DNA of 41,949 nucleotides from a virus (taxonomy: Duplodnaviria > Heunggongvirae > Uroviricota > Caudoviricetes): IMG/VR virus record IMGVR_UViG_2558860473_000005, positions 1-41,949 of that record; one strand, 5' to 3'. A model generated the notes under the pieces. The model did not search any database, was not told the DNA's origin, and saw only the letters and a list, made by a program, of their open reading frames with translations. Below are positions 19,842 to 39,441 of the stretch, piece by piece. A program made the position numbers and the translations under genes. Position 1 is the first letter of the stretch. Every line of letters begins with the position of its first letter.

Positions 19842-20280
19842 TAGCGATAATTCTACTCATCATCCTTCACATCTGGCTCTGTAGACAGGGTGGTGATCAC
19901 TTCTGGAGTGAATCCAGATTAAACATCTCATTGCTGATGCTTGAAGTTAAGCATATGGCGCGCGGCAAGGGGCTGCGTTGAGATAAGAGCCAGTTCATTA
20001 CAAAGCCTATCTACGGGTGGGCTTGATAATGAAACCGGAATTTATTCTGGGTAACCAGTTACGGCAGTACAGCGAAACAACCCAAGCCAGAAAGTGGGGA
20101 AATAACACTGGCAGCCACTGAAAGATGAACCTCCAGCCTTATGGCAAAAAAGATTCTTTGTGGTGGCGGACTGATGGAAAGACATCGGATAGAATAAAAC
20201 AGTGGCTAGGGTAGCTGCCGAAAAGCGGAATCGTCACCGCCTGCCACTGAATCTATGACGAACAACTAGACGAGGTTGTG

Positions 20281-34978: not shown

Positions 34979-35311
34979 TTAATCATCCATGGATGGATTG
35001 AGCTTATCTCGTGTTGATGTGGCGGTTTTCCCTACATTCCTAAGCCAAGCTTTCAAATCCTTGATATTGTCATTGATTTCATGAATATCTTCCTTTTTTA
35101 ATCTGTCAATATTATTTTCAATAATTTCAATGGATTGCTCAATATCAGATATAGTGAATGATAGTTTGCTCTTCTCATCTGTTATTGAGTTTTTAAGTAC
35201 TTCGTTCTCAGTCTTGAGGTCAGATATCTTTTGCTTTAAAGATGCCAGTTGGCACTGAACCACAATGAGTGCGATAGCTATCACGACAAATGTTGCATAC
35301 ACGCTAACCAC
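34979..35311 (-). CDS. Membrane-anchored coiled-coil protein (N-terminal TM helix then coiled coil), 110 aa; cassette gene C
   Basis: Hydrophobic YATFVVIAIALIVVQ segment followed by heptad-like K/E-rich sequence; GTG start; AT-rich by eye. Confidence 0.55.
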   Translation of the reverse strand: MVSVYATFVVIAIALIVVQCQLASLKQKISDLKTENEVLKNSITDEKSKLSFTISDIEQSIEIIENNIDRLKKEDIHEINDNIKDLKAWLRNVGKTATSTRDKLNPSMDD

Positions 35312-35322
35312 CTTGGTTTTAT

Positions 35323-35676
35323 CTACTTGAGGACTAATCCGTTAAGTGCATCAAGGATTTTAGATACGTAACTACCGAAAATGTAGGTGCAAAAAGCAAA
35401 AACAACCGTGACGACAGCACCGATAGCCTTAATGGTTGTTTTCATTGTGGTGATACTAGTTTCAATACTGCTAAGCCTGGTGTCAATTGACTTCACGTCT
35501 TTTTGAATGATCTCAATGTCACGCTTGATATAGCTGACATCAGACTCTAACTTTGCGACCCTTGATTCCATGCCATCACCTCCTTCGCCTCCAGACCTGT
35601 TCTTATCCTTTGTGTTCTCAGGATGGATACGAGATATGTTTTTTTCACTAATTGATGTTTCAATTATATCAAGCAT
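35323..35676 (-). CDS. Tail-anchored coiled-coil membrane protein (XhlA-like architecture), 117 aa, or 82 aa from the internal start at 35571; cassette gene B
   Basis: Coiled-coil segment then C-terminal hydrophobic helix AIGAVVTVVFAFCTYIFGSYV; strong GGAGG RBS before the internal Met; 8-bp overlap with gene A if the long start is used. Confidence 0.55.
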   Translation of the reverse strand: MLDIIETSISEKNISRIHPENTKDKNRSGGEGGDGMESRVAKLESDVSYIKRDIEIIQKDVKSIDTRLSSIETSITTMKTTIKAIGAVVTVVFAFCTYIFGSYVSKILDALNGLVLK

Positions 35677-36079
35677 CTTTCACATGACTCACGGAAAAGT
35701 AGGCTTGCGCAGAATGCACTAGAGTGTTGTCTTTGCTGATGGATACTCGAATTAAGTAATCCCCGTCAGCATCAAGTTTGCATTTATCGAAATGCATAGA
35801 CATCGATGTTGCCAAGGTGTTCCTGATCTCATTGTGTCCTTTTGCCTTAATCCATACGCCTTTATCACCGCTTACACTGATTTCTAACTCATTCTCGATT
35901 CTATAGAGACAAGCTGAAACCCAATATGGTGTATCATGAATTAAACCGAGAAAGTGAACCTGAAAATCAAGGTCAGTAGTCACAGGTAACTCATCTGTCT
36001 CCATGATTAACATGGGTGATTTTTCATCATTTTCAGACTTATGGTAAGGAAAAAGGAATGCTATTTTTTCAGTGTTCAT
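35669..36079 (-). CDS. Hypothetical soluble protein, 136 aa; cassette gene A
   Basis: Start overlaps the mnt stop by 4 bp (translational coupling); no recognisable family. Confidence 0.55.
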   Translation of the reverse strand: MNTEKIAFLFPYHKSENDEKSPMLIMETDELPVTTDLDFQVHFLGLIHDTPYWVSACLYRIENELEISVSGDKGVWIKAKGHNEIRNTLATSMSMHFDKCKLDADGDYLIRVSISKDNTLVHSAQAYFSVSHVKDA

Positions 36080-36318
36080 TTCCCATCCCTTAAACGTTTA
36101 AGTACATTGATGGTTACATCAAGAGCCTCTTGCTCTGACTTTGCCAGTTGCTGACTGCTTAATGGTATAACCTGCTCTTTATGCATTTTTATCCACAACT
36201 GGATAGCAGCAATAATCTCAGCATTGATAGAGCGTCGATTAGTGGCAGCAATATGCGTAAGTTGCTGTTTTATCTCATCTGGCATTCTTACGTTGAATTG
36301 CGGATCATTTCTAGCCAC
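36076..36318 (-). CDS. mnt: Mnt-like ribbon-helix-helix repressor, 80 aa
   Basis: MARNDPQFNVRMPDEIKQQL... resembles P22 Mnt; divergent from arc; GTG start with GGAGA RBS. Confidence 0.75.
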   Translation of the reverse strand: MARNDPQFNVRMPDEIKQQLTHIAATNRRSINAEIIAAIQLWIKMHKEQVIPLSSQQLAKSEQEALDVTINVLKRLRDGK

Positions 36319-36411
36319 GTCATTCTCCTTTTATTTATTGACATGCTAGAACGGTAGTAGTACGCTTTCAATAGTAGTACGGTGCTATCATTTGATGAAA
36401 TGGAGGTGAAT
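36319..36411 (+). promoter_or_regulatory. immI-like divergent promoter/operator region (Pant-like -35 TTGACA 36338-36343; direct repeats TAGTAGTAC at about 36355 and 36373)
   Basis: Intergenic region between divergent mnt and arc; candidate -35/-10 elements on both strands overlapped by two 9-bp direct repeats. Confidence 0.45.
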
Positions 36412-36573
36412 ATGCAAGGTGCAAGAAAAATGCCGCAGTTCAATTTGCGGTGGCCTAAAGAAGTATTGGATTTGGTACGCAAGGTGGCGGAAGAGAATGG
36501 TCGGTCTGTTAATTCTGAGATTTATCAGCGAGTAATGGAAAGCTTTAAGAAGGAAGGGCGCATTGGTGCGTAA
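36412..36573 (+). CDS. arc: Arc repressor (ribbon-helix-helix), 53 aa
   Basis: [53 protein letters not shown] is near-identical to P22 Arc by recall; GGAGGTG RBS. Confidence 0.9.
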
Positions 36574-36577
36574 AGTT

Positions 36578-36609
36578 GAAGCCCCAACTGCTGGAACAGT
36601 CAGGGCTTC
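36578..36609 (+). promoter_or_regulatory. Extended hairpin in the arc-ant intercistronic region
   Basis: GAAGCCC...GGGCTTC with inner ACTG/CAGT stem; no U-run on either strand. Confidence 0.35.
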
Positions 36610-36641
36610 GGTATCAACAAAACTTACGAGGTATTATTGAT

Positions 36642-37532
36642 ATGTCAAGCTTAGCAAAGTCAACTGTAAATTGCACTAATAGCATCATCATTTCTGACGT
36701 CAAGATTCATATGGATTCAGAGGGGCGTTACTCGCTTAATGACCTTCATGTAGCGTCTGGGAAGGAGGAAAAACATCAGCCAGCTTTCTTCATGCGTAGA
36801 AATGAAACTATTGAATTAATTAATGAAATTTTTAATTCTGCGGATATGCAGAATAAGAATCCCGTCCTTTCTAAGAAAGGTCGATATGGTGGAACCTACG
36901 TGTGCAAGGAGCTTGTTTACTCCTACGCCATGTGGATTAGTGCATCCTTTGCGCTGAAGGTTATCCGTGCATATGACGCAATGGTTACTGCCACACAAGA
37001 TAGGAAGGCTATTGGAGGTAAAACTTCAGTAGCTGAACGCACACCGCTACGAGATGCAGTAAACATGCTGGTAGGAAAGAAAGGACTTCGCTATGACGAT
37101 GCATACAATATGGTTCATCAGCGTTTTGGTATTGACAGCATTGATGAACTTTCAATTGAACAAATCCCGCTGGCCGTAGAGTACATCCACAGGGTAGTGC
37201 TTGAAGGTGAGTTCATTGGCAAACAAGAGAAGAAAACCAACGAGCTTTCTGCAAAAGAAGCAAACAGCCTTGTATGGTTATGGGATTATGCCAACCGTTC
37301 ACAGGCATTATTCCGCGAACTGTATCCGGCGCTAAAACAAATTCAATCGAACTATTCCGGCAGATGCTACGACTACGGTCATGAGTTCTCGTATGTTATC
37401 GGAATGGCGAGAGACGTTTTAATAAACCACACACGAGATGTTGATATTAATGAGCCAGACGGACCAACGAATCTTTCCGCATGGATGAGACTTAAGAATA
37501 AAGAATTACCTCCTTCAGTACATAACTACTGA
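36642..37532 (+). CDS. ant: Antirepressor Ant (KilA-N domain N-terminus), 296 aa
   Basis: KilA-N-like segment ([24 protein letters not shown]...); downstream of arc as in P22 immI; GAGGT RBS. Confidence 0.8.
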
Positions 37533-37570
37533 CAGATAACCAACGCAACGACCCAGCTTCGGCTGGGTTT

Positions 37571-37593
37571 TTTTATGCCCAAAATTCACCGTA
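37571..37593 (+). terminator. Rho-independent terminator after ant
   Basis: Hairpin CCCAGC-ttcg-GCTGGG followed by TTTTTTT. Confidence 0.75.
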
Positions 37594-37632
37594 GCCATGC
37601 TGCGGCGATTCCTTGTATCTGGAGCAAATTAA

Positions 37633-39441
37633 ATGACAGATTCAATAAATGCCAATGTTGTAGTGAGCATGCCATCGCAACTCTTCACTATGGCTCGTTC
37701 TTTTAAAGCCGTAGCCAATGGCAAAATTTATATCGGTAAAATTGACACTGACCCGGTAAATCCTGAAAACCAGATTCAGGTTTATGTAGAGAACGAAGAC
37801 GGCTCTCACGTTCCTGTTTCTCAACCAATCATCATTAACGCTGCTGGTTACCCAGTATATAACGGACAGATTGCCAAGTTTGTAACCGTGCAAGGCCATT
37901 CTATGGCTGTTTATGATGCGTATGGTGCACAGCAGTTTTATTTTCCTAATGTGCTGAAGTATGACCCTGATCAGTTTGGTCCAGACTTCAAAGAGCAGTT
38001 ATCTCAATCAGGGGAATACATTAATGATGATTCAAAAGGTGATGCATTAATTGGCGTAAGACAGCCCGTTGCCGGGTCGGTAGCTATCACACAGCATGAT
38101 AAAAACGCACAAATAATCAACTTAAAAGATTTTGGTGCTAAGTGCGATGGTGTAACTGATGACACAGTGGCAATTCAGGCTGCTGTAGCTGCTGCGCATA
38201 CTGGTGTCCGTATAGTTCAACCTGCAGGGGTTTGCCTTACATCTCAGCCGTTGTCATTCACTAGTCCTGCATTTTGGTATGGAGATGATGGCGCTCGCAT
38301 TAAGCTCATTAGTGGCAGTCATGACTATGTTATGGAAATTGATCTTCGCGGGCCTAGTGGTTCGTTCTGGGGTTATGGGTCACATATTGAAAACATTATC
38401 TTTGATGGTGGTGGTCACGCAAAAGATGGCCTTTCATTGCGTGGTGTTATCGGAGGTATATTCAAAAATATTCGTGGGACAAATATATCAAGGACCGCTA
38501 TTCATGAATGGTGGACCCAACTTTGCCACTATGAAAATATTCAATGCAGTAATAATATTGAAGCATTCCAAACAACCCCTATTCACGGAATCTTATCTGA
38601 TTGTGAGTTTGGAACTGGTAATGATCGTGGGTCTTCTGCAAATACTTACATGAATACCACTATTGAACATACCTCTGGTAGTGGGATTTGTGGGGTGTTT
38701 ATGTCTAATTGTACATTTATAAATGGCACATCAGAAGGTAACGATATTGGCATTGAGTTTGGTCACGCTACTGATGATAGAAACCAATCAGTTGGGAATT
38801 CAGTTATTGGCATGGATCTTGAAGTTAATTCTTTAACTGATGTGTTATTACATAAAACAACATATGCAAATGACTTTATTGGTCTAAAAGCTGGTTATTC
38901 ATCTCCAGCCATTCAGGTGCAAGGCTCATATGCTAATAGCTTTATTGGTGGAGTAAGCAGTGGTATAGATTTTGACTCATCATCGCATGATAATAAAGTA
39001 ATAGGTATGAATCTTTTAGGCAACGATTCTATCATCGTAGATAACGGGTTAAGAAATTCATATGAGAATATTTTCAATATTTCATCTGGAGCTAAAAAAG
39101 AAAGCACTAACCCTTATCCATCGCGTAGCAACAATATAATTTCATCAAATGGTACTGTGCAAATTAACCCATTTTTATCATCATACTGTGTTGTGTCGGC
39201 TACTGGTTCACCAATTAATGTTACGTCTGTAGCAAAAAAATTAGACGGTGCGACTATTGATATGACTATTCATAACATTTCTGGATCTGATGAATTAATA
39301 GTAAACTGGTCTTCTGACTTCAGAGTTTCTGGATGGACAAGCCCGGCAACAGGGCGCCACCGGTCTATAAGATTTGCTTATGATGCAAACTACGGATACT
39401 GGACTGCTATATCTATGAGTCAGTCAGATATTCTGAACTAA
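37633..39441 (+). CDS. Tailspike protein: P22-type N-terminal head-binding domain plus divergent beta-helix receptor-binding domain, 602 aa
   Basis: First ~115 residues match the P22/Sf6 tailspike N-terminus by recall; the rest has repetitive G/N/S/T-rich strands typical of parallel beta-helix depolymerases. Confidence 0.85.

Follow-up and report, generated by a model that had tools for sequence, protein, structure and literature searches.

Arc and Mnt of phage P22 are textbook models of DNA recognition by a β-sheet, and the Arc operator is a site of 21 base pairs (bp) with two inverted TAGA-type half-sites that is bound by a tetramer. In the immI region of P22 (BK000583), mnt is followed by the divergent arc-ant, both promoters have 17-bp spacers, two 21-bp operators have their centres 28 bp apart, and the sar RNA, with its promoter in the first ant codons, is antisense to the ant ribosome-binding site. 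The gene order, the promoter register with its spacers, the operator spacing and the antisense position of sar, with a candidate sar promoter in the first ant codons, recur in a stretch of 41,949 nucleotides (nt) from a tailed virus (IMG/VR record IMGVR_UViG_2558860473_000005, positions 1 to 41,949; hereafter the window), together with an Arc body 98% identical and a sar terminator hairpin 95% identical to those of P22. A preliminary description, made from the sequence without database searches, had noticed an immI-like control region at positions 36319–36611. Our comparison makes it very probable that this region is the core of a P22-type immI control module, homologous to that of P22 and residing in a P22-like Escherichia coli prophage. 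The locus is thus an immI-type switch of an ordinary kind, in which back-to-back promoters, sites for two repressors and an antisense RNA would govern the antirepressor gene of the prophage, and it departs from P22 mainly in the DNA sequences that the repressors should recognise.

Genes and promoters of the control region

The genes, promoters and putative operators of the region are as follows.

36076–36318, minus strand: mnt-like repressor gene, 80 amino acids (aa), GTG start, N-terminus ARNDPQFNVRMP, from the list of open reading frames (ORFs)
36338–36366, plus strand: Pant-equivalent promoter, TTGACA (36338–36343), 17 bp, TACGCT (36361–36366), read from the sequence
36343–36371, minus strand: Pmnt-equivalent promoter, TTGAAA (36371–36366), 17 bp, TAGCAT (36348–36343), from a promoter scan (9/12)
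36343–36363, no strand assigned: mnt-proximal operator (position of P22 O_arc), ATGCTAGAAC-G-GTAGTAGTAC, centre G36353, putative binding site
36371–36391, no strand assigned: arc-proximal operator (position of P22 O_mnt), ATAGTAGTAC-G-GTGCTATCAT, centre G36381, putative binding site
36412–36573, plus strand: arc, 53 aa, Pfam Arc (PF03869), E 8e-31
36642–37532, plus strand: ant antirepressor gene, 296 aa, with an N-terminal KilA-N and a C-terminal P22_AR_C domain (Pfam PF04383 and PF10548; PHROG anti-repressor families)

Both small genes match the Pfam Arc family, are transcribed divergently and stand beside an antirepressor gene with a P22_AR_C domain, as in a P22-type immI. The 80-aa protein (E 5e-13 to PF03869) is 31% identical to P22 Mnt and 83% identical to the Mnt of phage Emek, and its closest solved structure is 1mnt, indicating a distant Mnt. 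The window Arc matches the solved Arc structures 1arq, 1par and 1bdt at about 100 bits and equals P22 Arc except for its N-terminal arm (MQGARK versus MKGMSK) and one Lys/Arg change; at the DNA level, codons 7–54 of arc are 98% and codons 1–6 67% identical to P22. A recently deposited 79-residue 'Arc family DNA-binding protein' (PDB 9pio, chain G) also matches the window Arc, at 97.7 bits.

Both promoter candidates of the preliminary description, TTGACA-17-TACGCT rightward and TTGAAA-17-TAGCAT leftward, were found, the latter also by a consensus scan in which it was the sole promoter-like site across 36000–37700. Alignment puts the two, overlapping and divergent, in the same columns and exact register as the annotated P22 promoters, and by analogy both are predicted to be active in the window phage. 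The −10 hexamer of Pant is TATATT in P22 and a weaker TACGCT here, and the window mnt starts with GTG. This start codon, found in every locus of the window immI type (including L017–L029 and L097–L103), is ATG in the P22 type, and may lower the translation of Mnt.

Operators, direct repeats and their repressors

The segment 36343–36363 aligns column for column with the annotated P22 O_arc and lies between the −35 and −10 hexamers of Pant, and 36371–36391, centred 28 bp further on, shares its centre column with P22 O_mnt and covers the Pant start. By our own count, about 12 of 21 positions are identical to P22 in the first operator and about 11 of 21 in the second (59% identity across 36338–36391). 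The expectation of analogous operators with different sequences was therefore borne out, with P22 positions kept at about half identity, and the immI-type reading holds. The operator sequences are not those of P22, as homoimmunity at immI would demand; being only about half identical, they define a separate specificity class, presumably heteroimmune, that is common to Emek and N7. The comparison covered about 30 related loci for the repeat and the operator block, and all two-operator immI types sampled for the layout. A −35 hexamer, a 21-bp operator, a 7-bp spacer and a second 21-bp operator were kept in all two-operator types surveyed, with the −35 hexamer overlapping the mnt-proximal operator and the spacer containing the Pmnt −35.

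Two direct repeats of 9 bp had been described between mnt and arc. The pair exists, but each copy extends to 10 bp, with 17 bp from start to start:

36355–36364, plus strand: direct repeat copy 1, TAGTAGTACG, right half of the O_arc position, overlapping the Pant −10 (repeat search)
36372–36381, plus strand: direct repeat copy 2, TAGTAGTACG, left half of the O_mnt position plus the centre G (repeat search)

These are the only exact copies of TAGTAGTACG within the window. Nearly all of the approximately 30 related loci retain both copies, one locus (L023/L115) with a single C in copy 2, and in L023 and L123 just one copy is changed. This independent change of the copies points to two separate sites and not to a repeat unit. 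An iteron-like unit requiring identical copies was ruled out for the same reason. From their positions, the direct repeats are read as half-sites of the two operator positions and not as a separate element.

Four half-sites of the type TAGNAC, each centred on TA, lie within 36347–36387 (TAGAAC at 36347, TAGTAC at 36358, TAGTAC at 36375 and, on the other strand, TAGCAC at 36382–36387), spaced 11, 17 and 11 bp. TAGNAC occurs 22 times in the 41.9 kb of the window, four times within these 41 bp (P about 2e-7 for four in 93 bp, with the pattern picked post hoc). The two P22 operators have little in common, unlike those of the window with their shared TAGNAC type. The pattern TAGNACNGTNCTA with at most one mismatch is found at the two operators only, with the one mismatch in the mnt-proximal operator. 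The latter keeps the left half-site TAGAA and has the right half GTAGTAGTAC where P22 has ACTCTACTAT. The palindrome of the arc-proximal operator is perfect in relatives, over the core TAGTAC-G-GTACTA in Emek and over all 21 bp in L123.

The assignment of Arc to 36343–36363 and of Mnt to 36371–36391 would follow from position and from what is inherited together. Operator type travels with the N-terminal arm of Arc and also with the type of Mnt, from which it departs in just one of the loci examined. Arc arms KGMS, KGAS and KGMSKN go with three different mnt-proximal operators while Mnt and O_mnt remain unchanged, and nearly every Mnt-like gene has an arc-proximal palindrome whose half-site tracks the N-terminal strand of Mnt:

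Mnt strand PHFNFR: half-site AGGTCCAC
Mnt strand PQFKLR: half-site TGAACCAC
Mnt strand PVFNLR: half-site AACCCCAC
Mnt strand PHFRLR: half-site TGACGCAC
Mnt strand PQxNxR: half-site TAGTAC

The core TAGTAC-G-GTRCTA is also present next to Mnt-like genes that are unrelated but likewise have a PQxNxR strand (Acinetobacter L007, L057, L065 and L128/L139). Divergence from P22 extends from the mnt leader up to and including arc codon 6, and within this block arc codons 1–6 and the operators are about 60–67% identical to P22, against 98% for codons 7–54; the Arc arm is therefore part of the swapped specificity block. In the approximately 30 loci, the operator block is almost invariant despite varying flanks.

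His6 of P22 Mnt reportedly contacts bases, according to work of the Sauer laboratory. The window Mnt has Gln at this position, so that Arc (PQFNLRW) and Mnt (PQFNVRM) share a Gln/Asn/Arg triad at the positions of base contact in P22 Arc, which would explain the similar half-sites in both operators; among the two-operator immI types sampled, the window type alone has identical triads in Arc and Mnt. As far as secondary accounts relate, the N-terminal arm of Arc contributes to operator binding and an exchange of N-terminal residues between Arc and Mnt alters specificity. With a strand and a TAGNAC vocabulary in common, Arc and Mnt could be told apart mainly by the arm and by geometry (same-polarity half-sites 11 bp apart at one operator, an inverted pair at the other) and not, as in P22, by the residues in contact with bases, or else cross-bind and so rewire the switch; we put this forward tentatively, as a possibility that is rather doubtful at present.

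Several relatives add to this picture. In L104 (E. coli HNSQ2209, NZ_CP137737, 500–640), a Gln6 Mnt of the window/Emek type with an ATG start is joined to O_arc and O_mnt of the P22 type and to a KGMS Arc. Its Pant −35 is TTGGCA, and the crossover is at the mnt start codon, where both types are 89% identical; the junction occurs in 1 of 5426 complete E. coli genomes, and a mismatch between this Mnt and its operator is predicted. The diverged relative L123 (IMGVR_UViG_3300011769_000077) has an identical mnt-proximal operator and, as the arc-proximal one, the perfect 21-bp palindrome ATGGTAGTAC-G-GTACTACCAT; its Mnt starts with ARTDPQFNVRMP and its Arc with MQGARKLPQFNLRW. In the distant immI-like modules of the environmental viral contigs L128, L139 and L143, a gene for a Mnt-like MAR[ST]DPQVNIRMP protein is divergent from one for an Arc-like MKGAR[SA]MPGVLVKMP protein and an ant-like gene, and three same-strand TAG(T/C)AC sites spaced 16 and 11 bp lie between them. 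Apart from L123 and the modules of L128, L139 and L143, the additional matches of the operator-pattern scans were chance matches inside genes, and exact-pattern scans of viral contigs found no hybrids of the window O_arc with another O_mnt or the reverse.

Both TAGTAGTACG copies might instead be half-sites for Mnt, which, alone or as an oligomer, would fill three to four TAGNAC sites over 36347–36387 and repress both promoters, with Arc using the same sites or playing a minor part. The two operators would then not be protein-specific as they are in P22, as might be expected of repressors with the same Gln/Asn/Arg strand residues. By our own count, about 15 of 20 positions of the mnt-proximal operator agree with the half-site consensus of Mnt, as against about 3 of 10 per half-site in P22; both operators fit TAGNACNGTNCTA with at most one mismatch, and the distant immI-like modules set three direct TAG(T/C)AC sites beside a Mnt-like gene. 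Nevertheless, across types the mnt-proximal operator follows the Arc arm and not Mnt, the operators of L104 go with the Arc arm, apart from a window-type Mnt, and the two copies change one at a time in L023 and L123. Moreover, with a body 98% identical to that of P22, Arc is presumably a working repressor, and we consider a switch run by Mnt over all these sites unlikely. That the direct repeat arose by chance, or is left over from a 17-bp duplication, and lacks a function of its own has a probability close to negligible. A repeat of at least 10 bp did arise in 23 of 5000 shuffles (0.5%) of the 93-bp AT-rich intergenic region, and the 17-bp period would suit a local duplication; yet the copies persist in about 30 loci with varying leaders, each coincides exactly with a half-site of the P22 layout, and TAGNAC is strongly enriched, as given above with the pattern chosen post hoc. 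From these comparisons, two P22-type operators, for Arc next to mnt and for Mnt next to arc, remain the preferred assignment.

The sar RNA and its hairpin

The features of the arc-ant spacer and of the beginning of ant are listed below.

36572–36641, minus strand: sar antisense RNA of about 70 nt, reaching from the arc stop codon up to the last base ahead of the ant ATG, ends by homology with the P22 annotation
36578–36609, minus strand: sar stem-loop 2 or terminator, arms 36578–36590 and 36597–36609, inverted repeat
36613–36641, minus strand: sar stem-loop 1, 8-bp outer stem AUCAAUAA/UUGUUGAU, with the anti-Shine-Dalgarno CCUC between the arms
36628–36631, plus strand: ant Shine-Dalgarno GAGG, the presumed target of the sar CCUC, read from the sequence
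36648–36676, minus strand: Psar-equivalent promoter, GTGCAA, 17 bp, TAAGCT, inside ant codons 3–12, by positional homology with P22

The suggestion that an antisense RNA might be encoded in this spacer was confirmed by a match to the Rfam family sar (RF00262) on the minus strand at 36574–36640, with 66.3 bits against a gathering score of 43 and over model positions 1–68 of 68; transcription of sar is accordingly a prediction from family membership. In P22, sar, its terminator and its promoter (ant codons 3–12) are annotated at homologous coordinates, and P22 sar has been seen by RNA-seq during infection (PMC13397905). The Rfam scan of the whole window returned two families only, sar and int-alpA (RF02996).

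A long hairpin with stems of 7 and 4 bp and no U-run had been reported for the spacer and considered a possible processing structure of different sequence. The hairpin is real, but is the terminator hairpin of sar, 95% identical to that of P22. Its plus-strand fold has an outer stem of about 8–9 bp and an inner one of 4 bp, whereas the stem on the minus strand is an unbroken 14 bp; the split stem and missing U-run are explained by the plus strand having been read. The minus-strand RNA of 36572–36641 folds with −29.2 kcal/mol (z −6.6) into two hairpins, the second being the 14-bp stem followed by CAACUUU; in the plus-strand RNA (−20.3 kcal/mol, z −2.9) mismatches split the stem and a U-run is lacking. 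Two G·U pairs of the 14-bp stem are C·A mismatches on the plus strand. The hairpin was gathered from about 70 of 96 Mnt-related and reference loci, giving 41 distinct sar sequences, 25 of which were aligned. All 14 hairpin pairs are kept across these 25, five with compensatory double changes, and the two wobble pairs remain wobble in 20–21 of them, indicating that the structure is selected on the minus strand.

A role for the hairpin in the plus-strand arc-ant mRNA (attenuator, processing site or stabiliser), in place of one in an antisense RNA, is very unlikely. The hairpin does sit in the arc-ant spacer of the Pant transcript, and the plus RNA folds too; but it has no U-run at its 3′ side, the wobbles kept in most of the 25 variants pair on the minus strand and are mismatched on the plus strand, the full-length Rfam match is on the minus strand, and P22 annotates the hairpin as the sar terminator. 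A plus-strand terminator or attenuator was ruled out by the missing U-run, the C·A mismatches and the minus-strand match. When sar pairs with the mRNA, the hairpin may also play some secondary part in the resulting duplex.

The 5′ half of sar differs in sequence from that of P22: the sar 5′ part and ant ribosome-binding region (36612–36641) is 33% identical to P22, and identical to Emek. The window sequence contains both stem-loops of RF00262, and although stem-loop 1 is off the family consensus in sequence, its stem is kept through compensatory changes. All 25 sar variants fold from nucleotide 1 into a stem 1 of 5–8 bp, with several pair types at levels 1, 4 and 5, and the minus strand is always more stable than the plus strand. 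These are minimum-energy folds of single sequences anchored at the 5′ end, which lean towards pairing; they were used because the consensus-fold alignment set the P22-type and window-type stems one column out of register. Part of the CCUC is paired in a weak 2-bp inner helix of the predicted stem-loop 1. Across about 20 ant 5′ ends, the −10 position of Psar reads TAnnCT, mostly TATACT, and the −35 has (G/T)TG in nearly all, always 17 bp apart, while the encoded peptides differ; conservation of hexamer positions within differing coding sequence argues for a promoter, and Psar is predicted to be active in the window phage.

Inside sar, at 36609–36613, there is a mosaic joint with P22, between the 95% identical hairpin 2 and the 33% identical stem-loop 1. 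The terminator hairpin is near-invariant over loci whose ant 5′ ends are of at least five unrelated kinds and which have several different genes upstream. By comparison across these loci, the invariant hairpin is the presumed junction for the exchange of ant modules.

Proposed switch, relatives and meaning of the locus

As proposed, the rightward Pant and the leftward Pmnt overlap and would share the operator 36343–36363, where, by homology with P22, an Arc tetramer would shut both promoters. Mnt on 36371–36391, over the Pant start, would block Pant, keeping ant off in the lysogen and leaving Pmnt free. The approximately 70-nt sar would start from the weak promoter within ant codons 3–12 and stop at the arc stop codon, its 3′ stem-loop serving as terminator. 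As the CCUC of its 5′ stem-loop is complementary to the ant ribosome-binding site, pairing between the two should block translation of ant. The comparison shows homology, layout, the family membership of sar, conserved RNA structure and joint inheritance of proteins and sites, while binding of the proteins, activity of the promoters and transcription of sar in the window phage are expected by analogy with P22.

Several points weigh against this proposal. The −10 hexamer of Pant agrees with the consensus at 3 of 6 bases, and was therefore missed by the consensus scan, and the Psar hexamers (3/6 and 3/6) were likewise unreported by it. The mnt-proximal operator lacks the inverted TAGA boxes of P22, its right-half TAG being on the same strand as the left one, so that binding by an Arc tetramer would require tolerance of a flipped or quasi-palindromic half-site there. 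Identical strand residues in Arc and Mnt leave the assignment of sites to position and co-inheritance alone. In addition, mnt transcripts were undetected in lysogens of Kapi1, a related E. coli phage with a different immI layout (PMC12922286), and only the P22 version of immI has been studied (PMC2629481). As to polarity, the second half-site, GTAG-TA-GTAC, is near-palindromic about its own TA step (T36358/A36359), where P22 and L030 have an inverted CTAC, and a symmetric dimer centred on the TA step could accept either half-site polarity. This is plausible because ParG-type proteins bind both polarities and because the distant immI-like modules have direct TAG(T/C)AC sites 11 bp apart. ParG of TP228 is a ribbon-helix-helix protein that, as a symmetric dimer, recognises a short box from the major groove; adjacent dimers, spaced by about one helical turn, bind cooperatively, and the boxes may be direct or inverted (PMC3413123). 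Proteins and boxes differ from those of the window, and ParG sites are many-box centromeres or operators, so the analogy extends only to the same-polarity half-site.

The closest relatives are Salmonella phage vB_SemP_Emek, Escherichia phages N7 and HZ41 and about 25 E. coli prophages, which share the type of Mnt and the Arc arm with the window and whose operator block deviates from that of the window in 1–3 bases or not at all; within the group, the right half of O_mnt is variable (GTGCTATCAT, GTACTATCAA, GTAATACCAT). The whole 601-bp control region was found in 25 of 5426 complete E. coli genomes, in addition to Emek, N7 and HZ41, and a prophage of E. coli 266917_2 has near-identical DNA (99.5%). 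Emek shares the sar and the ant 5′ end of the window and has an extra ORF between arc and sar; N7, unlike the window, has a P22-type sar 5′ half and ant. The window and P22 have unrelated sequences in the sar 5′ stem-loop and at the ant ribosome-binding site, and the window Ant has a KilA-N domain at its N-terminus. The extra ORF, of 58–73 aa and located between arc and the sar hairpin, occurs in L002 (Emek, 1185–1406), L100, L101 and L103, and arc then ends in …REGITV. In the records examined of Emek/N7/HZ41-type relatives, operators and sar are unannotated, and among the searched papers that mention Emek none seems to treat the immI of this phage, as judged from titles and abstracts.

Downstream of ant, an intrinsic terminator was found at a place homologous to that of annotated terminators in P22 and Emek:

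37550–37569, plus strand: intrinsic terminator 3′ of ant, 8-bp stem followed by TTTTTAT, from a terminator scan

On the other side, the minus strand at 34979–36079 encodes three ORFs of 136, 117 and 110 aa behind mnt. Overlaps join the first to the mnt stop and the second to the first, so that at least these two look co-transcribed from Pmnt in the lysogen. The three belong to PHROG families 5893, 6136 and 5962, of unknown function there, and one is weakly XhlA-like, with coiled-coil or membrane character; nothing exceeded Pfam or PADLOC thresholds, the PADLOC matches being weak coiled-coil ones. Their place in the variable 'ant moron' region, which holds sieA and orf59a in P22, makes them candidate genes for lysogenic conversion or exclusion. 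Elsewhere in the window, an int-alpA RNA match lies at 20199–20261 on the plus strand (41.1 bits against a gathering score of 35.8).

None of these findings overturns the current understanding of immI, and sar is here an ordinary family member with a variant 5′ stem-loop. In Emek/N7-type phages and in about 25 complete E. coli genomes, this previously unannotated region can be annotated with single-base positions for sar, Psar, the promoters Pant and Pmnt and the two operators. The survey further provides a natural specificity series, consisting of sets of Mnt strands and half-sites, of the Arc arms KGMS, KGAS and QGAR with the operator particular to each, and of one mismatch recombinant, which bears on the evolution of heteroimmunity at immI. 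Finally, the sar terminator hairpin, itself near-invariant but flanked by ant modules that are unrelated, marks a joint of recombination at which ant alleles could be exchanged.

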